Both the position numbers and the translations under genes were made by a program. From a virus, in the UHGV virus genome UHGV-0864147: a stretch of 39,187 nucleotides of DNA. One strand, 5' to 3'. Below are positions 1 to 38,802 of the stretch, in pieces. Numbering within the stretch: the first letter of the stretch is position 1; each line of letters opens with the position of its first letter. The notes beneath the pieces were generated by a model. It did no database searches. It was not told the DNA's origin and worked only from the letters and a program-made list of their open reading frames with translations.

Positions 1-435
1 TTGGCTAAAAAAGATGTTACATACGACAAAGTTAAGACTGGCGCGGAAAAAGACATCCAAGAGATGAAAGAAGAGATTATTCGATCAAAGAATAGTATGG
101 GGGAATTGACTGCTGAGTTGAAAGCTAAAGATGACGAATTGAGATCCGCCAGTGCTCAGTTAGCAGCTCTAAATCATTCATTAAAAGAGATATCGGAAAC
201 TCTTGGAAGAATGAATGAGGCATATAAGACCCTCCAAAATGATTTCGACGAATACAAACTCAAATACCCTGAAAAATCTCAAATAAAAAGCCTTGCACTT
301 GGCAACGGCCAAACAATTAGCAACTTTTTGGAGCAACACAACTTATCCGGATTAAAATCTGGTAAGCCAAACGTTTTTAATAACTTTGGTGTTCTATCTG
401 GATTATCAGGTTTCGAGGATAAAAATAAAGACTAA
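1..435 (+). CDS. C-terminal part of AT-rich moron ORF (predicted coiled-coil); likely continues from 38804..39187 if the genome is circular
   Basis: Open frame from window base 1 with stop at 433-435; heptad-like charged sequence; low GC relative to neighbours; frame is continuous with ORF at window end. Confidence 0.4.
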   Translation: MAKKDVTYDKVKTGAEKDIQEMKEEIIRSKNSMGELTAELKAKDDELRSASAQLAALNHSLKEISETLGRMNEAYKTLQNDFDEYKLKYPEKSQIKSLALGNGQTISNFLEQHNLSGLKSGKPNVFNNFGVLSGLSGFEDKNKD

Positions 436-1907
436 GCATATGGATCGTACTCGGTAAGCGCCTTGCCTTGCTGGTTCTGCTGCCCGGGAAGTCGCAGGCG
501 CTTTGACACCGGGAAAGCAAACGTCAGCAGTAGCGCATCGCCTTTACCAGGCGAACGCCCAAGCCGCTCCTTGATATCTTCCTTCGGTTCGATAACGATT
601 TTACCGTCCACTCGAACTTTGTACTCTGCCGCCGACAGATCGTCCGCTGTTTCCTGGTCATCCAGCATCCCGCCCAGCCTCAGCCATGTCTTGCATGAGT
701 TGAACATCTCCCCACGCTTGTTGAGCATCTGCGGGTCAGTAGACGCGCCACCGAACGGAACAAGTTGCCATGTACGACCCCAGCCGTCACCGATTGACTT
801 CAAACCGGTTCCGTAACCGAAGTCGATGAACACCGCGTCAGCCTGATACTGGTCTTCAAAGTCAGCGATACGCTTCGCCATAATCAGATCGTCGGTAGTC
901 TTGTTGCCAGTCCACAGCACCTTACTGTGTAGCCCCTGCCGCAGGTATATCACCGCGTCATCAACGCCTGAATATGCCGGGTCAACACCGATTATCACCG
1001 GAGCATGCGCCACCTGCGCAGCGGTTACCACCCGTTTCATTGCCTCATCAGTAAGACCGGTAGGGATAAACTGCAATTCAGATGCATCAGGGAATATGCC
1101 GCGCACACGGATTTTAACGAAGTCGCTGTCTTCCCCGTAGTCATCAACCCATTTCTGCAACTGCTGTTTGTTAGTACCTTCCACCGTCCGGCTGTCAATC
1201 TGCGCAGTTTTCCAGCGGTGTTTGTATTTGCGGAAACATTCGCGAAAACGCCCGGTATTACGTGTAGGGTTTCCGAACGCCACCCAGATAATCTCAGTGT
1301 CTTCGTCCGTAAGCGCACCCTCAGCAACTTCCCACACCAGATCCGCAATGTTCGACGCTTCATCGAATACCACGATGATGCGTTTACGCTCGTTGTGTAG
1401 TCCGGCGAATGCCTCAGTGTTGTGCTCAGACCAGGGGATTGCGTCAGCTCGCCACCGCTTGTCGTGCCCAGGATCATTGCTGTACATCGCAGTAGCGGTA
1501 CAGGTAAACCAGTCTTTCGTGATAGCAAGGTTCGACCACTTGATAATTTCCGGCCAGGTCTTCGTTCGTAGCTGGTTGTCGGTGTTGGCGGTCACCACGA
1601 CCTTACAATCCTCGCAAGTGGACATGCCCCAGTTGATCAGCATTGAGATGAATGCGGATTTACCAATACCGTGACCAGAAGCGCGTGCCAGCATAAGCGG
1701 CTGATAGCGCGTCTCTGGATTCTGCAGGTGATCACGTATCTCTCGGAACGCATCGGCCTGCCACTGACGTGGACCGGTAGCATGTGCCAGTTCAGTCCCC
1801 TCTTCCCCCCAAGGGAACGCATAGAGGGCATAGCCAAGCGGATCGTGAGTGAACCCTGCAATATCTTCGATTAACTGCTCTTCAGGAGATAACGCTGCAT
1901 CTGTCAC
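432..1907 (-). CDS. terL: terminase large subunit
   Basis: 491 aa; Walker A-like GHGIGKS, acidic VVFDEAS motif; immediately downstream of small subunit gene with 4-bp overlap. Confidence 0.85.
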   Translation of the reverse strand: MTDAALSPEEQLIEDIAGFTHDPLGYALYAFPWGEEGTELAHATGPRQWQADAFREIRDHLQNPETRYQPLMLARASGHGIGKSAFISMLINWGMSTCEDCKVVVTANTDNQLRTKTWPEIIKWSNLAITKDWFTCTATAMYSNDPGHDKRWRADAIPWSEHNTEAFAGLHNERKRIIVVFDEASNIADLVWEVAEGALTDEDTEIIWVAFGNPTRNTGRFRECFRKYKHRWKTAQIDSRTVEGTNKQQLQKWVDDYGEDSDFVKIRVRGIFPDASELQFIPTGLTDEAMKRVVTAAQVAHAPVIIGVDPAYSGVDDAVIYLRQGLHSKVLWTGNKTTDDLIMAKRIADFEDQYQADAVFIDFGYGTGLKSIGDGWGRTWQLVPFGGASTDPQMLNKRGEMFNSCKTWLRLGGMLDDQETADDLSAAEYKVRVDGKIVIEPKEDIKERLGRSPGKGDALLLTFAFPVSKRLRLPGQQNQQGKALTEYDPYA

Positions 1908-2536
1908 TGATTACCATCCTGACGTTCTTTGAGTCGCTTCCTGGCTGCCGCTATGCGATCAGCAATTGTCACATTCACATTAACATCCAGGCGCTCTTTG
2001 AACGCGTTAACGTCGACGTGCTTACCGATGAGCTCGAGGTTTTTCACCTTGTCGGGCCATTTCACCTTCTTCAGGATATGCTCGACATCCTCAACAGAGA
2101 GATCCGCCTCGCCATTCTCTTTTTGCAGAGAAGCCTGGGTCGTCTTGATGGTAGCGATATCCATAGCACTGAGAGAGGTACGCCAGACCTTCGGCCATTC
2201 AGCGATCGGCTTCATCCCGCCGTCATCGTTCAGGATATCCAGCACGTCCATCTGGTCGATTTCCACCAGGCGCAGCAGGACATAATCAGCACTGACGCGC
2301 AGGCGCTTGTTGCGCTCCTCCATCAGCTCGGCAATCCGTTTTTGAATGCGTTCATCGCGCATCATGACACTGGCTTTAACTGCCGCTGTATTTGGAGAGA
2401 ATCCTGCGTTAATCGCTGCCTGAGTCTGGTTTTCAGGCGTTTTGATGTATGACTGGCAATAAGCCTCCTGCATTGCTGTTAGTGGCTTAAATTGCGTTGA
2501 TTTGCGTTTATAGGTTTTAGGTTCAGCAGGCATCAT
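1904..2536 (-). CDS. terS: terminase small subunit
   Basis: Translation contains AINAGFSPNTAAVKAS typical of small terminase DNA-binding domain; track ORF starts at TTG 2614, ATG at 2534-2536 preferred (GGTGG upstream). Confidence 0.65.
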   Translation of the reverse strand: MMPAEPKTYKRKSTQFKPLTAMQEAYCQSYIKTPENQTQAAINAGFSPNTAAVKASVMMRDERIQKRIAELMEERNKRLRVSADYVLLRLVEIDQMDVLDILNDDGGMKPIAEWPKVWRTSLSAMDIATIKTTQASLQKENGEADLSVEDVEHILKKVKWPDKVKNLELIGKHVDVNAFKERLDVNVNVTIADRIAAARKRLKERQDGNQ

Positions 2537-2568
2537 AACCACCGTGGTAATAGTTACCGTTGTGGTAA
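2536..2568. promoter_or_regulatory. tandem TTACC-N5-GGTAA-type sites in terS leader
   Basis: Sites 2536-2550 (TAACC/GGTAA) and 2554-2568 (perfect). Confidence 0.4.
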
Positions 2569-2578
2569 TAGTACCATG

Positions 2579-2605
2579 CAAAATAAAGCCGCCATAGTTG
2601 GCGGC
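2579..2605 (-). terminator. intrinsic terminator-like hairpin upstream of terS
   Basis: GCCGCC AACTAT GGCGGC followed by TTTATTTTG on minus strand. Confidence 0.5.
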
Positions 2606-2646
2606 AGTATTCAAAACCCATCAAATTCATCATGCATAATCTACTC

Positions 2647-2658
2647 GTGACATGTCAC
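2647..2658. repeat. 12-bp perfect palindrome GTGACATGTCAC (copy 1)
   Basis: Identical to copy at 21599-21610; overlaps a minus-strand stop codon. Confidence 0.6.
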
Positions 2659-3002
2659 ACTATTAATTTCGTTTCATGCCAGCCTTTAGTCACCCAGCAT
2701 TGCGAGTCACCATTACACGGGCATGAATTAACTGGAACTCTCTCGCCGCACTTACCGCAACGTTTTCTGCTGATCGATTTTATACGCCCGCGCACACGTG
2801 CATCATCCTGGCGGATCAGCAGCGCGATGTACTCGGCCATTTCATAGGGATCGCGACCAGGGCGCCGGGCGGCGCAGTTCCGCGCCAGCATTTCCTGCTC
2901 CTGCTTATCCAGCACCAGTTCAATTTTGCGCTCACCGGCGGCGGACTGCCGAGCGCGCTGCGCGGCTTTGCGTTCTGCGGGGGATTTAGCCACGAATCGC
3001 AC
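2655..3002 (-). CDS. hypothetical Cys-rich protein (CGKCG...CPCNG zinc-ribbon-like C-terminus), candidate late-gene regulator
   Basis: 115 aa ORF directly upstream of terminator plus terS; GTG start overlapping stop of upstream small ORF. Confidence 0.4.
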   Translation of the reverse strand: MRFVAKSPAERKAAQRARQSAAGERKIELVLDKQEQEMLARNCAARRPGRDPYEMAEYIALLIRQDDARVRGRIKSISRKRCGKCGERVPVNSCPCNGDSQCWVTKGWHETKLIV

Positions 3003-3108
3003 TCCACGCCAGATTGATTAATGACTCCCAGGTAATATAAACCCGGATACCAGCAGCCAGGCCGAAACCAATCACCATGGCATAAAGCAGAGCGTTGCAC
3101 TTGTTCAT
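2986..3108 (-). CDS. small hydrophobic peptide (40 aa)
   Basis: Not in ORF track; ATG at 3106-3108 preceded by GGAGGTGAAG; translation MNKCNALLYAMVIGFGLAAGIRVYITWESLINLAWSAIRG. Confidence 0.3.
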   Translation of the reverse strand: MNKCNALLYAMVIGFGLAAGIRVYITWESLINLAWSAIRG

Positions 3109-3947
3109 CACTTCACCTCCTGCGGCGGTTCTGGTAGCGGCATCCAGTGAGTTACGTCATCCAAGATATTTCCTGATAAATACGTGAAAGCTCTATATTT
3201 TTTGTAATCAATTGGATTTACAACCCAGTTCCAATATGCGGCCACGATTTCACCTTGACTAAATGCCAGTAACATTTTGGTGTCTTCCGGCATTCGCTCA
3301 CTACAGCTTATCCAACCATCCGGAGTTACCGGATAGTTGCCATTCACAAGGTCAGCTCGAACATATAGTGTGTCATCATGGTGCTGATTGTGGCTGCACC
3401 ACGTTAATTCGCTTAACTCGCCATCTTCTGGCCATACTCCAGCTGTTTGCAGCCAGATATGGGCTGGCGCATCTTGGCAAGGTGTATTAACTGGCAACTT
3501 GTAAGTTTGGCTTACAGGTTCAGCACCATGAAGCATGGCGTCGCTCCGCTCTATGCCATCCAGCGCGATTCGCAGTGCCTGAATTGTGGTAGAGCTATCG
3601 TTTGGGGCTATTCCATATCGCTCGAATACAGCTAAATGGTTGCGCATAATCTCAGGCGTAAGCTCTTTGTAAGCATAAGCAAGAGGCTCTGATGCATTAT
3701 CCGGCACAACCGACGCAGGCGCGGCAGCATAAACAGGAATAACGTCCGCTTGCTCTTTATTGCTTTCATCCGTTAAAGCCCAGAATAATTTCCCGGCCGG
3801 ATGTTTGAAAATATAAGCAACTGGTTCTGCTTCCAGCGATGCCAGTGCAATTTCATAAGCACGGCGCTCAATATTGTCTCGAACGTCCAAGCTGCCTATG
3901 CGCTCTTTGATTTCTTTAATCAGTTCTTTGTCGGTAAAAGTGGTCAT
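3108..3947 (-). CDS. hypothetical protein with DUF551-like C-terminus (WMPLPEPP)
   Basis: ATG at 3945-3947 preceded by AAGGAG; track gives longer 3108..3989 version. Confidence 0.5.
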   Translation of the reverse strand: MTTFTDKELIKEIKERIGSLDVRDNIERRAYEIALASLEAEPVAYIFKHPAGKLFWALTDESNKEQADVIPVYAAAPASVVPDNASEPLAYAYKELTPEIMRNHLAVFERYGIAPNDSSTTIQALRIALDGIERSDAMLHGAEPVSQTYKLPVNTPCQDAPAHIWLQTAGVWPEDGELSELTWCSHNQHHDDTLYVRADLVNGNYPVTPDGWISCSERMPEDTKMLLAFSQGEIVAAYWNWVVNPIDYKKYRAFTYLSGNILDDVTHWMPLPEPPQEVK

Positions 3948-6011: not shown

Positions 6012-6014
6012 GAT

Positions 6015-6091
6015 TTACCTCTAAGGTAATTAAAAACCACATAAGACACGAAATCAATAGATTTTAGAATATTTTATTACCCAACAGGTAA
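6015..6091. promoter_or_regulatory. two TTACC-N5-GGTAA sites (6015-6029, 6077-6091)
   Basis: Perfect inverted repeats in intergenic gap inside replication operon. Confidence 0.45.
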
Positions 6092-6128
6092 TTATCAAGA
6101 CGTAAAAAAATGCGCTATCGCGCTGGTA

Positions 6129-8005: not shown

Positions 8006-8022
8006 CCAGATTTGGTTTTTTA

Positions 8023-8037
8023 TTACCTTTGAGGTGC
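8023..8037. promoter_or_regulatory. degenerate TTACC-N5-GGTGC site
   Basis: Between terminator and cII-position gene. Confidence 0.3.
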
Positions 8038-8044
8038 GAATAGA

Positions 8045-8348: not shown

Positions 8349-8377
8349 ATAATAAATATTCACCCATAAGGTAACAA
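8349..8377 (-). promoter_or_regulatory. PR-like promoter for Cro-like gene
   Basis: Minus-strand -35 TTGTTA and -10 TATTAT with 17-bp spacer, overlapped by operator site. Confidence 0.4.
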
Positions 8378-8422
8378 AAATCAAGGATAGTTACCTATGG
8401 GGTGCATTTACCTGTTGGGTAA
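8360..8422. promoter_or_regulatory. OR-like operator cluster (three TTACC-N5-GGTAA-type sites at 8360-8374, 8391-8405, 8408-8422)
   Basis: Between divergent repressor and Cro-like genes; one perfect and two degenerate inverted repeats. Confidence 0.55.
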
Positions 8423-8477
8423 TATTGCTTTAAATTGAATCATCTACTGATTCATATACGAGGCGATTTTCCAGAAA

Positions 8478-9062
8478 ATGAAAAGTATCCAGGACGTCCG
8501 CAGGCAAAATCTCAACGACTTGATCGACCGTGAATTCAATGGTGTTCAGACGCGGATGGCAGAAAAACTTGGAACTCAGGCAAATCTGGTAAACCGCTGG
8601 GCTCTTGGCAAGAAGGTTATCGGCGACCAGGTTGCGCGAAAAATTGAAGCTGCCGCCAATAAACCCCGTAACTGGCTTGATATCGATCGCTCGCTTTCTC
8701 AGGAAGGTTTTCAGCCTGTCGGCCCAAGCGACATTGGTCAGCTGGCGGCTCACAACCTGGAACGCTGGATGAGCGAAAGCCGCGACCTTTCAACACAGGG
8801 AAAACTTCACCGCGCATCCGGCGTCGCCCAGGTGACAATCAGCCGCCTGTTAAACAATGAGGTCAGCGTTTCCATTTCCACCCTGGAGAATGTTGCATCC
8901 GCATTCGGGCGTCACGGCTATGAATTACTGATTCACCCGCACGACCCTGCGACCATCAACTATGACCGCTCGCGCTACGCATTGTTACCCGAAACCGAGA
9001 AAGCAAAGATCGAAAGTTACATTGAATTTGTCATCAACCAGAACGAAAAAAACAAACAATAA
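8478..9062 (+). CDS. prophage repressor, two HTH domains, no S24 peptidase domain
   Basis: 194 aa; two XRE-like HTH segments; located at cI position; followed by strong terminator. Confidence 0.55.
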   Translation: MKSIQDVRRQNLNDLIDREFNGVQTRMAEKLGTQANLVNRWALGKKVIGDQVARKIEAAANKPRNWLDIDRSLSQEGFQPVGPSDIGQLAAHNLERWMSESRDLSTQGKLHRASGVAQVTISRLLNNEVSVSISTLENVASAFGRHGYELLIHPHDPATINYDRSRYALLPETEKAKIESYIEFVINQNEKNKQ

Positions 9063-9108: not shown

Positions 9109-9119
9109 TGTCTACACAA

Positions 9120-9196
9120 TTACCTTAAGGGTAATTTTTTTAACTCATATCTATTGACACCAAACCAAATACGCATAATCATTACCTCAACGGTAA
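9120..9196. promoter_or_regulatory. OL-like operator pair (9120-9134 and 9182-9196) flanking a TTGACA -35 element (9154-9159)
   Basis: Two perfect TTACC-N5-GGTAA sites; -35 consensus hexamer; -10 assignment uncertain. Confidence 0.5.
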
Positions 9197-9215
9197 CAGA
9201 CCGAGGTAACAAGTT

Positions 9216-14221: not shown

Positions 14222-14263
14222 AATTCACCCATATAGAAACCATTTTCATGACGGTATGAGAGT

Positions 14264-14278
14264 ATACCTTTAAGGTAA
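14264..14278. promoter_or_regulatory. ATACC-N5-GGTAA site upstream of integrase
   Basis: Near-perfect copy about 45 bp upstream of int start. Confidence 0.4.
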
Positions 14279-14327
14279 TACCGTCACCTGTACCGCCGAA
14301 AAATATGGTGTAGAGTGAATAGAAATG

Positions 14328-19110: not shown

Positions 19111-19214
19111 GTTAAATCTCCAGATAGTCGCAGCACCCGTTGCGCCGCATATCTGGTTATTCTATTACCTGAAAAACCATATATGTATAGAAAGACTATA
19201 AATACCAATAGATA

Positions 19215-19229
19215 TTACCTTTATGGTAA
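19215..19229. promoter_or_regulatory. TTACC-N5-GGTAA site upstream of LexA box
   Basis: Perfect arms; 38 bp upstream of LexA box. Confidence 0.45.
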
Positions 19230-19266
19230 TTTGCAAAACGTGCTGGATAGCAAACAAATTATTTGA

Positions 19267-19286
19267 TACTGTATAAATATACAGTT
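19267..19286 (+). promoter_or_regulatory. LexA (SOS) box
   Basis: TACTGTATAAATATACAGTT, i.e. CTGT-N8-ACAG with AT-rich spacer, 2 mismatches to the 20-mer consensus; 20 bp upstream of ATG 19306. Confidence 0.7.
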
Positions 19287-19305: not shown

Positions 19306-19563
19306 ATGCAGCGGTATCACTATCCACTGGAAGACGGATTTACCGAAAGGATTCACACGCCGGGAGGCGTCAGGTCACTGGTGGAGGGATCGCACTTGAT
19401 GAAATTACTCCGGGATCTCGATAAGGATGGATTTAATGTCGATGGCCCACTTGCCGAACTGACTGCACTGATTAACTACGTCACCAGCTCACAGATGTCT
19501 ATGCGGGATCTGCAAACACATCTCGACTATTGTGCCGAACAATTACGAAAACAAACCAGATAA
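19306..19563 (+). CDS. small protein paralogous to antirepressor C-terminal domain; LexA-regulated
   Basis: ATG 19306 with GGAG upstream; about 45 percent identity to Ant C-terminus by eye; LexA box upstream. Confidence 0.5.
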   Translation: MQRYHYPLEDGFTERIHTPGGVRSLVEGSHLMKLLRDLDKDGFNVDGPLAELTALINYVTSSQMSMRDLQTHLDYCAEQLRKQTR

Positions 19564-19566
19564 GGT

Positions 19567-19609
19567 TTGCAATTACCAAGTGGAGTGCTTATATTTACCT
19601 TTGAGGTAA
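19567..19609 (+). promoter_or_regulatory. promoter-like element (-35 TTGCAA, -10 TATATT) with TTACC-N5-GGTAA site 19595-19609
   Basis: 17-bp spacer; perfect operator-like repeat overlapping -10/+1. Confidence 0.4.
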
Positions 19610-19877
19610 ATTTACATCGCACTCCTCTTGTGCCATAGTAATCGGGCACTGGCAAAATCCAGTGCCGGGATTGGTCTCCCGGATTACTACAGAGGCACAT
19701 ATGCCGCATAAGCGGTTTTTTTTATGTGTAAAGCGCACCTATTCTATGGTGGGCTGTGTGGGGGCACCGAAAGGTGCGCCGGGTTCCTTTGTAGCCGGTA
19801 AGACCAACTCTGCACAGTTCACCACCATCTGATTGGTCTCAGCGGTGGTGATTAACCTAACTACAAAGGTGATCGCC
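19610..19877 (+). ncRNA. structured leader / candidate regulatory RNA upstream of ant
   Basis: Hairpins at 19646-19665, 19665-19682, 19704-19715 plus U8, 19764-19777 (GAAA loop), 19819-19851; CCTTTGTAG (19786-19794) complementary to ant SD region (19861-19869). Confidence 0.3.
19704..19723 (+). terminator. weak terminator/attenuator in ant leader
   Basis: CCGC ATAA GCGG followed by eight T. Confidence 0.35.
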
Positions 19878-20570
19878 ATGAATACCAAACCTTCCATCTT
19901 TTCCTTTGAGTCATCCTGCCAGATCCGTATGTTCATGATTGACGGAGAACCTTGGTTTGTCACCAAAGATGTGTGCAATGCTTTGAATATTGATGTTACA
20001 CAAGCGAGAAAACTTGATAAAAAAGGCTGGAACAAAAAGGGGCTGTATTCAATACAGACCCCTGGTGGAATACAAGAACTATCCATCGTTTCAGAATCAG
20101 GTCTCTACATCCTTATTCTGCGTTGCAAAGAGGCAATGACTGAGGGAACGAGAGCATTCAGATTTCTTGAATGGGTTACAGGCGAGGTTCTTCCTCAGAT
20201 CCGCCGCACCGGAAGTTACATTAAAAACTCGCTACCGCAGGAAGAACGCATAAAGATGGTTGCCGACCAGGTAGCCAACGCCACGGCGTCAGCAGTAATG
20301 CAGGCGATGAAGATAGAGAACAAAACCTACAACGCCCCGCTGAAGCCCGGCTACCGCAGCCTGATTCATTCCCCGTCTGGTGTTCTCGGCCTGACGGAGA
20401 ACTCACTGCTGATGAATCTGCTGAACCAGTTACAGGAAGACGGGCACGACGTATCGGGCGCGGCGGCGGAGCTGACCACCATGTTCTGCTACATCGTCGG
20501 TGTGAGCAAATGCCTGCGTGATATCCAGACGCACGCGGAGTACATCAACGACAAGGCTGGGTTCTTCTGA
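19878..20570 (+). CDS. ant: antirepressor (Bro-N N-terminal domain)
   Basis: FSFESSCQIRMFMIDGEPWFVTKDVCNALNI and GLYILILRC / VLPQIRRTGSY Bro-N signatures. Confidence 0.8.
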   Translation: MNTKPSIFSFESSCQIRMFMIDGEPWFVTKDVCNALNIDVTQARKLDKKGWNKKGLYSIQTPGGIQELSIVSESGLYILILRCKEAMTEGTRAFRFLEWVTGEVLPQIRRTGSYIKNSLPQEERIKMVADQVANATASAVMQAMKIENKTYNAPLKPGYRSLIHSPSGVLGLTENSLLMNLLNQLQEDGHDVSGAAAELTTMFCYIVGVSKCLRDIQTHAEYINDKAGFF

Positions 20571-20635
20571 CGGGCGGCGGCACAGGGATGTGCCTTTAAA
20601 TAATTCTGTACAGATTGCAGGTGAATAGCTTACTA

Positions 20636-20650
20636 TTACCTCACGGGTGA
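20636..20650. promoter_or_regulatory. TTACC-N5-GGTGA site upstream of moron
   Basis: 9/10 arm match. Confidence 0.35.
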
Positions 20651-20739
20651 TCCATAGCGATTAGGCACCGATACAGGAGGAGCCCACATGAGAAAATTTG
20701 ACGAGTACGAAGGCGTTTAACATTCGGATAGTTTAATGA

Positions 20740-21580: not shown

Positions 21581-21598
21581 AGGCCGCGAAAGCGGCCT
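21581..21598 (-). terminator. terminator after small membrane protein gene
   Basis: AGGCCGC GAAA GCGGCCT; U-tract on minus strand. Confidence 0.5.
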
Positions 21599-21610
21599 GT
21601 GACATGTCAC
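21599..21610. repeat. 12-bp perfect palindrome GTGACATGTCAC (copy 2)
   Basis: Identical to copy at 2647-2658; overlaps a minus-strand stop codon and abuts terminator hairpin. Confidence 0.6.
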
Positions 21611-21903
21611 GTCCCTTTTCTGAATGATAGCCATTCGAAAAATGATGACATTCCACCGCAGACAACAGCAAAGATGATCCCACCAAAGAAGAGAATGCCA
21701 GCCTGCCACCACTCCCACCGCCATACATCCACAGCGCCAACCATACCAACAATCGCTCCAACAAATGGAATATAGCTCACGATGAAAGCAATGGGGGCTG
21801 CAATTATCCAGTGCAATCCCCACCATGATTCAAGCCCAGCCATAATTGCTGCCAACTGAAAAAGACCAACGACGATATAAACAATGAATCCTATAGCTTG
21901 CAT
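21607..21903 (-). CDS. small integral membrane protein
   Basis: 98 aa, 3 hydrophobic segments, AGGTGG upstream of ATG. Confidence 0.45.
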   Translation of the reverse strand: MQAIGFIVYIVVGLFQLAAIMAGLESWWGLHWIIAAPIAFIVSYIPFVGAIVGMVGAVDVWRWEWWQAGILFFGGIIFAVVCGGMSSFFEWLSFRKGT

Positions 21904-38145: not shown

Positions 38146-38182
38146 TTGACATTTAACGCGTGAATTATTACCTTTCAGGTAA
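38146..38182 (+). promoter_or_regulatory. TTGACA -35-like hexamer with TTACC-N5-GGTAA site 38168-38182
   Basis: Perfect operator-like repeat 17 bp downstream of consensus -35 hexamer; on same strand as tRNA. Confidence 0.4.
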
Positions 38183-38504
38183 CCAAAGAGCTCATTCTGG
38201 TTACTAACCTGACTGGCTTGTCGTTAAATTAAACAGGTGGAGTGAGCTTTTATTTTGAGCAGTACGGCGTATGGCACATGCGCCGATAGCGGTCTGGATA
38301 CGTTTAAGGGGCACCCTCCCTTGCTCGGGCAAACGAACCAGGTAGCCGGAATGTGCAAGTCGAGCGGTTTTATTCCGCGCACGGGGATTCACCATCCCGG
38401 CGATTCGGTGTGACGCCTCGGAAGAGACGAGGGTACAACGATGAGAGCATTTATGGAGCCGCGACAAAGTGTGGCGCCTTAACAGGCTAAGTGCTCTCAG
38501 CGTT

Positions 38505-38768: not shown

Positions 38769-38784
38769 GCTTGATGACCGCAAA

Positions 38785-38802
38785 TTACCTTAAAGGTATA
38801 AT
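38785..38802. promoter_or_regulatory. TTACC-N5-GGTAT site overlapping TATAAT hexamer and SD of moron ORF
   Basis: 9/10 arm match; AAGGT within site sits 6 nt before ATG 38804. Confidence 0.4.

Follow-up and report, generated by a model that had tools for sequence, protein, structure and literature searches.

The analysis concerns UHGV virus genome UHGV-0864147, and in particular the junction between its last early gene, here called reg, and terS, the gene for the small terminase with which the late (packaging) genes begin. The whole stretch of 39,187 nucleotides (nt), hereafter the window, belongs to the phiV10/epsilon15 group of Escherichia phages (Uetakevirus; 90-96% identity), and phiV10 proteins map onto it over the whole genome in reversed orientation; judged by its sequence, the junction is the minus-strand border between early and late genes of a temperate phage of this type. 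Beyond reg and the nin-like accessory genes lie DUF1064, the replication genes and then a cro-like gene (8323-8096), and the structural genes wrap round the window end, down to 21607. The terS product is 84% identical to phiV10 p01. For comparison, 80 viral loci with close reg homologues were assembled together with two annotated phages, making 82 in all, and reg is followed by terS in 80 of the 82. The GenBank record of phiV10 marks a terminator and names p55 a transcriptional regulator, that of epsilon15 marks a terminator after gp49 and a repressor 'protein_bind' site before terS, and neither annotates a Q or N homologue. Since these records mark the terminator, the regulator and the repressor sites, the parts of the junction are already known at the level of annotation.

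A GC hairpin with a U-tract had been predicted between the last early gene and terS, and it is indeed present. The hairpin, GCCGCCAACTATGGCGGC, has a stem of 7 base pairs (bp), 6 of them G-C, and a loop of 4, and its stem folds at -12.6 kcal/mol; the tract TTTATTTT follows it on the transcribed strand, and the opposite strand lacks a T tract, so that the element has the G+C-rich stem-loop and U tract of an intrinsic terminator. It was the top match of a terminator scan over 6.5 kb. Taken over all its sites, the scan did not exceed chance (8 found vs 6.7 expected), so the case for a terminator rests on conservation and existing annotation: hairpin and T tract are kept in 76 of the 80 related loci, and the phiV10 and epsilon15 records annotate the homologous element as a rho-independent terminator. 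On these grounds the hairpin is predicted to be a conserved intrinsic terminator exactly between the last early gene and terS. An Rfam scan of 2300-3400 gave a sub-threshold rseX match alone (27.8 bits vs a cut-off of 50) and no known RNA family.

Between this terminator and terS lie repeats that the original prediction had overlooked. The direct repeat ACTATTACCAC occurs twice as part of two 17-bp symmetric sites, one of which overlaps the -10/+1 region of a candidate promoter and the other the terS Shine-Dalgarno (SD) sequence and ATG; at least one TTACC-N5-GGTAA site is found in all 80 related reg-terS gaps. In the window the motif has about 14-16 mostly intergenic sites, compared with ~1 in shuffled sequence. 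Two clusters (8360-8424 and 9118-9198) flank the HTH_3 repressor gene at the OR and OL positions, and further sites precede p42, DUF1064, terS, int, tailspike/p24, Bro-N, a moron, p04 and p06, the one at DUF1064 sitting inside a TTGATA-16-TAAAAT promoter. Symmetric repeats of ~17 bp that flank a repressor gene and overlap or adjoin promoter-like elements are what is expected of CI/Cro-type operators. In addition, the terS pair has the 18-bp spacing of OR, as read from the sequence by eye with the middle OR operator not marked by the tool, and the epsilon15 record lists seven such 'protein_bind: repressor' sites, including bases 12-27 just before terS. The repeats between the terminator and terS are thus two copies of the predicted operator of the prophage repressor, and, because operators flank the cI-like gene and precede most transcription units, one repressor seems to control every module directly.

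The operator pair adjoins an extended -10-like element, TGG-TACTAT, which we infer to be a candidate late/packaging promoter. The sequence TGnTAnTATTACC is found in 80 of 80 related loci, including four that have no terminator, and the order of -10 element and then operator matches that at the putative PL. At cro|p42 and at repP|DUF1064, too, a terminator is succeeded by a promoter with operator and then by a gene, and by this analogy the repeats before terS point to a junction at which transcription may re-initiate under direct repressor control. A further observation is that the terS junction (2561-2555) and the putative PL (9189-9195) both have CAACGGT after the -10-like hexamer; its spacing equals that of CAACGAT, the sigma-dependent pause element of lambda pR', but it lies within the repressor operators.

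The original prediction compared the position of the hairpin with that of the Q-antiterminated terminator of lambdoid phages, and in this phage the comparison is not supported by the DNA between reg and the terminator, in which no pR'-type promoter was found. The 45-nt spacer between the palindrome at the end of reg and the terminator holds an eight-codon mini-ORF (open reading frame), and in 29 related loci an ORF of 61 amino acids (aa) ending in ...YDEFDGL* lies between the same palindrome and the same terminator. Because the spacer corresponds to the head and tail of that gene, it is, on sequence comparison, a deletion scar of a 61-aa accessory gene and not a pR'-type promoter, and the sole candidate for a pR'-like promoter or pause element between reg and the terminator is thereby removed. 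The reg-terS gap takes several forms: ~119 nt as in the window, ~100 nt as in epsilon15, ~305 nt with the 61-aa ORF, and 410-450 nt with a umuD-like gene, which brings along a promoter and a LexA box. This umuD-like accessory gene was seen in five loci (L050, L054, L071, L077 and L080) with a TTGACT promoter and the LexA box TACTGT-N8-ACAGTA; four of them (L050, L054, L071 and L077) have no terminator before terS, so there it is split from the packaging genes by repressor operators alone.

Table 1. Features of the junction and of related sites. Positions are those of the window unless a locus is named.
Feature	Position	Strand	Remarks
terL	1907-435	-	3' of terS; 1907-435 by phiV10 protein mapping, gene at 432-1907
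terS (small terminase), first late/packaging gene	1904-2536	-	ATG 2536; Pfam Terminase_2, E 1.6e-27; PHROG 51
Two tandem 17-bp predicted repressor operators, TATTACC-N5-GGTAA	2534..2570		centres 18 bp apart
Extended -10-like element, TGG-TACTAT	2568..2576	-	no -35 (that position lies within the terminator stem); predicted start ~2561
Predicted intrinsic terminator closing the early-right operon	2580..2605	-	GCCGCCAACTATGGCGGC stem-loop 2605..2588, then TTTATTTT 2587..2580
Mini-ORF, 8 codons, MHDEFDGF*	2611..2637	-	ATG CAT GAT GAA TTT GAT GGG TTT TGA
12-bp palindrome GTGACATGTCAC	2647..2658		contains reg TGA stop; presumed reg binding site
reg, 112-aa protein	2655..2993	-	listed ORF 115 aa, 2655-3002; stop TGA inside palindrome
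40-aa hydrophobic (membrane) peptide gene MNKCNALLYAMVIGFGLAAGIRVYITWESLINLAWSAIRG	2986..3108	-	ATG 3108, TAA 2986; PHROG 5525, E 8e-30
nin-like accessory gene run	reg up to 5602		phiV10 protein mapping
cI-like HTH_3 repressor gene	8478-9059	+	phiV10 mapping; HTH_3 domain
Terminator GGCCGCTTTCGCGGCC + TTGTTTTT	21597..21582	-	one base past second palindrome copy
Second exact palindrome copy	21599-21610		overlaps TGA stop of last late ORF (21607-21903)
Operator-motif sites	2534-2570, 6013-6093, 8021-8039, 8360-8424, 9118-9198, 14262-14280, 19213-19231, 19593-19611, 20634-20652, 38166-38184, 38783-38801		
Phage_integrase-family genes upstream of reg	L083 2688-3968; L085 1973-3247; L088 2193-3431; L145 1566-2837		

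No peptidase domain was found in the HTH_3 repressor, and a perfect LexA box, CTGTATAAATATACAG, occurs at 19269-19284, just upstream of the 85-aa p24 gene (19306-19560); a small antirepressor under SOS control may therefore bring about induction. Upstream of the Bro-N antirepressor-like gene (~19878-20567), the interval 19566-19716 holds a promoter-like site and a repressor operator, and 60-110 nt further on a strong terminator, GCCGCATAAGCGGT + T8, an arrangement that looks like a leader or attenuator.

The cysteine-motif protein of 115 aa on which the original prediction centred is real: it matches PHROG 536, 'transcriptional regulator', with E 5e-54. Its start is probably GTG 2993, which would give 112 aa, because a GGAG lies 8 nt upstream, nearly all homologues have this length and the overlap with the preceding peptide gene is 8 nt. 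Among 90%-identity clusters there are 738 homologues (E <= 0.001), nearly all of 112 aa, from enterobacterial podoviruses, N15, P2-like phages and marine metagenomes; a search over 1.8 billion representatives returned 149 clusters only. Across an alignment of 55 full-length members R8, C79 and C82 are invariant, R13, E54, L59, P87, G95 and C99 are nearly so, and C91 aligns with the GC of the reg family. The AlphaFold model (pLDDT 90) has a basic helix at the N-terminus, a core of helix, loop and long helix, and a cysteine knuckle accompanied by a short helix at the C-terminus, and individual members give weak Pfam matches to RHH_5, RHH_1, TacA1 and RepB-RCR_reg. The succession of beta-strand, helix and helix, with dimerization through the strand, is that of a ribbon-helix-helix (RHH) protein, and by fold and family analysis reg is a dimeric RHH protein with a C-terminal Cys4 zinc module (C79, C82, C91 and C99).

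Recognition of reg as an RHH-Cys4 protein appears to be new. Neither reg nor the adjoining 40-aa peptide belongs to a Pfam or NCBIfam family; reg has no Pfam match at E<0.1, none of the 55 members matches a Q family at E<1, and none has an Ogr, MatP or DksA/TraR Pfam match. MatP was among the top matches in structure comparison, the best matches of the reg profile to PDB sequences were the TraR/YbiI zinc fingers (marginal, E 0.03-0.05), phmmer of reg against PDB sequences found nothing, and a BFVD structure search found just a fragment from the same family. A literature search for the function of the N15 homologue, gp46, also found nothing, and the ZX5 paper (PMC9782041) leaves this region untreated. 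The homology search that had been proposed as a check thus placed the protein with database entries named 'transcriptional regulator' but in none of the three Q families, and by its sequence reg is a widespread, uncharacterised protein of DNA-binding type.

The palindrome reported ahead of terS is likewise present, and its exact sequence, GTGACATGTCAC, is repeated once in the window (Table 1), compared with ~0.04 exact copies of GTGAC-NN-GTCAC expected in 39 kb. Both copies share 14 nt, TGTGACATGTCACG. The palindrome is kept in 80 of 80 related reg-terS gaps, with TGTGACATGTCACG(A) unchanged even where the last reg codons or the downstream DNA differ, and the accessory genes found in these gaps begin right after it. 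When spacers of 0-4 bp were allowed, exact copies near reg had 2 bp in 22 of 24 cases, none in 2 of 24 and 3 bp in 0 of 24, and later counts were restricted to copies with a 2-bp spacer. Three sets of reg-encoding loci contain 132, 58 and 27 copies, with fewer than 0.5 expected in each, an enrichment of 150-300x. The arms never vary, the centre may be AT, AG, CG, GC, TT or TG, and the fold as RNA is weak (-2.9 kcal/mol), which argues for a DNA site bound by a dimer. Other interpretations of the palindrome were discarded: an RNA hairpin on account of the weak fold, the invariant arms and the lack of covariation, and CRP (TGTGA-N6-TCACA) or LacI/GalR-type operators on spacing.

The site strongly co-occurs with the reg gene, at or near whose 3' end it is found in lineages of only 30-35% protein identity. 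Epsilon15 has three copies, one each at the reg stop, past the terL terminator and at the gp18 stop (in order of coordinate, 2142, 19517 and 39612); phiV10 has the same three places, one of them mismatched, with exact copies at 2262 and 19493. In both phages, as at 21599-21610 in the window, the exact GTGACATGTCAC copies follow a gene stop, 1-45 nt before an intrinsic terminator, at borders of variable accessory genes. A second copy lies 3' of terL in 53 of 84 loci, and various oppositely oriented accessory genes begin right there. The right arm of N15 has three copies, and one of them, GTGACTGGTCAC, includes the stop codon of gene 46, which the epsilon15 record names as the homologue; the 18-bp palindromes GTGCGACC-NN-GGTCGCAC near its late promoter we take to be SopB centromere sites and not reg sites. 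Lambda and the right end of P2 lack the palindrome, and P2 itself has neither reg nor its sites. Of 48 Uetakevirus contexts, 33 have the palindrome after a gene stop and before a terminator (random positions: 5 of 144), and its distance from the terminator downstream of reg varies from 22 to 330 nt. A general coupling of palindrome and terminator was rejected, with 0/48, 0/17 and 0/3 such contexts in the groups outside the Uetakeviruses. From this distribution it is probable that reg binds the matS-like palindrome GTGAC-NN-GTCAC. No paper was found that gives the palindrome sequences in a phage context, and the tight link, across lineages, between reg and a matS-like palindrome at module borders appears to be new.

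Two further arrangements were noted at or near such sites. In the P2-like locus L160 (3847-3925; also L163-L193), three GTGAC-type sites with 33-nt spacing form an array that separates the end of the early (reg) operon from the 3' end of variable, defence-like genes converging on it. In the window, the 3' side of terL is without the terminator-plus-palindrome found there in most relatives; the DNA at this place (1-435, plus strand) is unlike that of phiV10 (2238-2649) and epsilon15, and a coiled-coil-like ORF of 144 aa that runs off the window edge converges on terL, the two stops overlapping.

The 40-aa hydrophobic peptide gene, absent from the ORF list, exists and is coupled to reg as had been proposed, but it does not form part of a control region. 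An SD sequence, GGAGGTG, precedes its ATG, and the gene overlaps its neighbours at both ends, at TGATG the stop of the DUF551 gene upstream and, by 8 nt, the reg start (GTGGCTAA), an arrangement that predicts translational coupling on both sides. It is present in 33 of 82 loci, DUF2591/NinX or ASCH genes taking its place elsewhere and still overlapping the reg start, and from this pattern the peptide is best read as accessory cargo outside the control region.

Distant homologues of reg occur in several other settings: before a holin gene, lysis genes, HNH and terS (L088); 1.4 kb upstream of a GpA-type terminase, with three small ORFs and a DUF1441 gene between (L085); and after a P2-type replication gene (L089). 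In at least 10 of 73 divergent loci, compared with 1 of 362 control windows, reg is directly followed by a Q-type cassette. It comprises a strong promoter and, 6-7 nt downstream, another -10-like hexamer (as in TATCGT...TATCGT or CAACGT-GG, where the verified lambda sequence is TAAATT-TGACT-CAACGAT-GGG), and is completed by a conserved leader and a strong terminator. On sequence inspection these parts match the published definition of a Q cassette (PMC9388147), in which the late genes are preceded by a promoter that carries a Q-binding element within it, by a sigma-dependent pause element and by a terminator. Immunity-type operators of these phages also flank their late promoters, and the palindrome lies 50-480 nt from the promoter. 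In N15, which encodes both a reg homologue (gene 46) and, next to cro, a Q-like protein (gene 40), gene 46 and the late cassette are 1.9 kb apart; a reg that neighbours a cassette therefore need not be its antiterminator. For the proposal that the cysteine-motif protein is a late regulator, its DNA-binding type and the fact that in several unrelated phages its homologues close the early operon just before late genes speak in favour; its membership in no Q family and the presence of both proteins in N15 speak against a Q-like role.

Individual pR'-tR'-like cassettes were seen 0-250 nt after reg in L083, L085, L090, L093, L121, L131, L143, L145, L146 and L151-L158, and their leader, CATTGTGGTGTTGTTCCGCCACGG, contains the inverted repeat CGTGG-N10-CCACG and partly resembles lambda +17..+34, TCGCTCGTTGTGGTAGTG. 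In the early operon of several divergent lineages a gene of the Phage_integrase family (412-426 aa) was also observed, which shares the strand of reg and precedes it by one to three genes (Table 1).

The anatomy of the junction (terminator, operators, reg as an RHH-zinc protein, accessory peptide) can be stated with high confidence. How it works is less certain, and we favour, tentatively and at somewhat less than even confidence, a terminator-insulated, repressor-controlled re-initiation junction and not a Q-type cassette. The early-right operon ends in reg (plus the accessory gene in relatives) and is closed by the predicted intrinsic terminator, directly past which the extended -10-like element and the two predicted operators follow, the second operator covering the terS ribosome-binding site. 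It has only marginally less than an even chance, in our estimation, that the packaging/late operon is transcribed from this weak, -35-less promoter of its own under repressor control, and the prophage repressor would then shut both the promoter and any read-through directly. The reg protein would bind the palindrome that covers the stop codon of reg itself, and also the copies at the 3' ends of two further transcription units, where it might form a bidirectional border element (roadblock or insulator), a role that we consider possible at well short of even confidence, the sign of the regulation being tentative. As such it would reinforce terminators and keep early, late and oppositely oriented accessory transcription apart in lytic growth. 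Almost all characterised RHH proteins are repressors, and the border role is favoured because of this, because the site is symmetric, and because it lies between transcription units by variable cargo; such a position, with the cargo often convergent, is seen in Uetakeviruses, N15 and P2-like phages.

Several points weigh against the re-initiation proposal. The candidate promoter is a consensus match only, and an A/T-rich extended operator could explain part of its conservation. If all modules are derepressed at once, late timing would be left unexplained. A roadblock at the reg stop would also be expected to silence those accessory genes that lie, in relatives, in the interval from palindrome to terminator. 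Outside the Uetakeviruses the palindrome does not stand beside terminators, and several copies are placed closely ahead of ribosome-binding sites that serve essential late genes, such as terS in L088, which is a poor fit for an insulator. Finally, the position of reg at the end of the early operon and the distant Q-type cassettes would suit a positive late regulator just as well.

Q-like antitermination is not supported in this phage by its sequence, and it is kept under consideration because distant reg homologues precede Q-type cassettes. In its general form, which we consider rather unlikely, reg would be a DNA-site-loaded antiterminator (an analogue of Q, AlpA or RfaH) that, bound to the palindrome, engages the RNA polymerase (RNAP) of the early operon and reads through the hairpin into terS, and at 21599 likewise towards the tailspike/lysis genes, with the operators merely keeping the prophage silent. 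That reg is the last conserved early gene before terS in nearly all loci (80/82), that homologues of 30-35% identity hold the Q position in unrelated phages, that Q-type cassettes follow reg so much more often than they occur in controls, that phiV10 and epsilon15 have no annotated Q or N homologue, and that reg gives marginal profile matches to RNAP-binding zinc fingers all agree with it, and a palindrome always upstream of the Uetakevirus terminator, at variable distance, would suit a loading site. Yet N15 has a Q-like gene besides gene 46 and a cassette remote from the latter, the palindrome is 50-480 nt from the distant cassette promoters and outside the Uetakeviruses is not adjacent to terminators, and read-through at the copy past terL would drive transcription of accessory genes antisense into terL; moreover, we know of no antiterminator with an RHH fold. 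The stronger claim, that the reg family (PHROG 536; epsilon15 gp49, phiV10 p55, N15 gp46) would be a fourth class of late antiterminators, unrelated to the three Q families, which loads from the matS-like palindrome so that read-through of 2605-2580 starts the packaging operon, is unlikely. A lambda-type cassette in the strict sense would have a constitutive promoter lying between reg and the hairpin, and from it a short terminated RNA would be made until reg, as Q, modified the polymerase there; such a cassette is exceedingly improbable: a weak promoter-like match over the palindrome (GTGACA-18-CATGAT, 9/12; in epsilon15 GTGACA-17-TAAATT) and a downstream TTTGAT-GGG resembling the lambda pause element can be cited for it, but the spacer is an accessory-gene deletion scar, the 'pause element' encodes the C-terminus of that gene (DEFDG), the promoter-like match is destroyed in variants that carry the gene, the RNA would be just ~40 nt long, and reg is in no Q Pfam family.

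Two other roles for reg were weighed against that of a border element. One is a system without a transcriptional function, in which reg and the palindrome would organise DNA in the manner of MatP and matS, or serve packaging or recombination, and mark the borders at which accessory genes are exchanged. The half-sites are identical to those of matS, MatP is a top structural match, copies stand on either side of the terS-terL module and at the late operon's end, the palindrome is immediately followed by differing accessory genes in P2-like phages as well as at each of the three Uetakevirus sites, and a Phage_integrase-family gene precedes reg in four separately sampled divergent lineages (L145, L083, L085 and L088). 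This role is nevertheless quite improbable, given a spacer of 2 bp and not the 3 bp of matS, a reg protein with neither the four-helix bundle and coiled coil of MatP nor a Pfam MatP match, 5-bp arms and a 2-bp centre that are too small for the core site of a tyrosine recombinase, and the absence of a second recombinase nearby in Uetakeviruses. The other, which we regard as very doubtful, is that reg is a classical activator of the -35-less late promoter, acting from the palindrome ~92 bp (window) or ~73 bp (epsilon15) upstream of the predicted start. A promoter with an extended -10 alone plausibly needs help, production of reg at the end of the early operon would provide a delay, and in the two short gap forms the centre of the palindrome falls within ~1 bp of -92.5 and -72.5, positions from which class I activators such as CRP act. 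However, 186-330 nt of accessory gene separate palindrome and promoter in at least 29 related loci, other copies stand at operon 3' ends and not upstream of promoters, the terminator stem fills the DNA between site and promoter, and RHH activators are rare.

The junction itself is an ordinary element of a known kind. What the analysis adds is a predicted fold for a widespread phage protein, reg, together with a specific DNA site, likewise predicted, which is conserved across lineages of ~30% protein identity and marks borders where accessory and defence genes swap. If reg insulates, this would explain how temperate phages keep the transcription of accessory genes from colliding with lytic operons; if it antiterminates, it would be a new Q analogue.

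Among known systems, the lambdoid Q proteins (Q-lambda, PF03589; Q21, PF06530; Q82, PF06323) resemble reg in that it is small and of DNA-binding type, has a zinc module and is encoded by the last early gene before a terminator and the late genes, and in that a promoter, a -10-like repeat and a terminator come after its distant homologues. Unlike them, reg has an RHH and not a helix-turn-helix fold, with no relation in sequence or fold to any Q family; this phage has no promoter or pause element between reg and the terminator apart from the 9/12 match, the presumed reg site is a palindrome outside any promoter, and N15 possesses both proteins. Zinc fingers of the DksA/TraR C4 type (PF01258) share with reg a long helix, CxxCGxxxP, a further cysteine and a short C-terminal helix, whereas the reg spacing is CxxC-N8-C-N7-C and not CxxC-N17-CxxC, there is neither a Pfam nor a structural match, and the reg helix is continuous with the RHH core, so that reg could not enter the secondary channel as TraR does. 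The Ogr/Delta late activators (PF04606) have CxxC-N22-CxxxxC, a pattern that reg lacks, and reg has no Pfam match to them. The place of reg after gene A in P2-like phages resembles that of gene B in phage 186, a likeness that is positional only.

Closer in fold are MatP and the RHH repressors. MatP, the organiser of the E. coli Ter macrodomain, shares with reg the RHH core, the GTGAC/GTCAC arms of its sites and the occurrence of several sites per replicon outside promoters; it differs in having a four-helix bundle and a coiled coil in place of the N-terminal basic helix and Cys4 module of reg and a site spacer of 3 bp in place of 2 bp, and in its lack of detectable sequence homology to the phage-encoded reg. 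The 13-bp matS consensus is GTGACRNYGTCAC (PMC6907758). RHH repressors such as Arc, Mnt, CopG, MetJ, the ParD/MazE/TacA antitoxins and omega lack the extra conserved zinc module of reg, whose sites, unlike theirs, lie at gene 3' ends and operon borders and not over a promoter. The predicted operators, in turn, are comparable to the dispersed operators of P1 C1, the stoperators of mycobacteriophage L5 and the epsilon15 sites, in which one immunity repressor has many sites genome-wide, one of them ahead of packaging/late genes, so that these genes may be silenced directly in the lysogen. Unlike the P1 C1 and L5 sites, those described here are symmetric, lambda-type 17-mers that mostly overlap promoter-like elements, the L5 stoperators being asymmetric and orientation-dependent.

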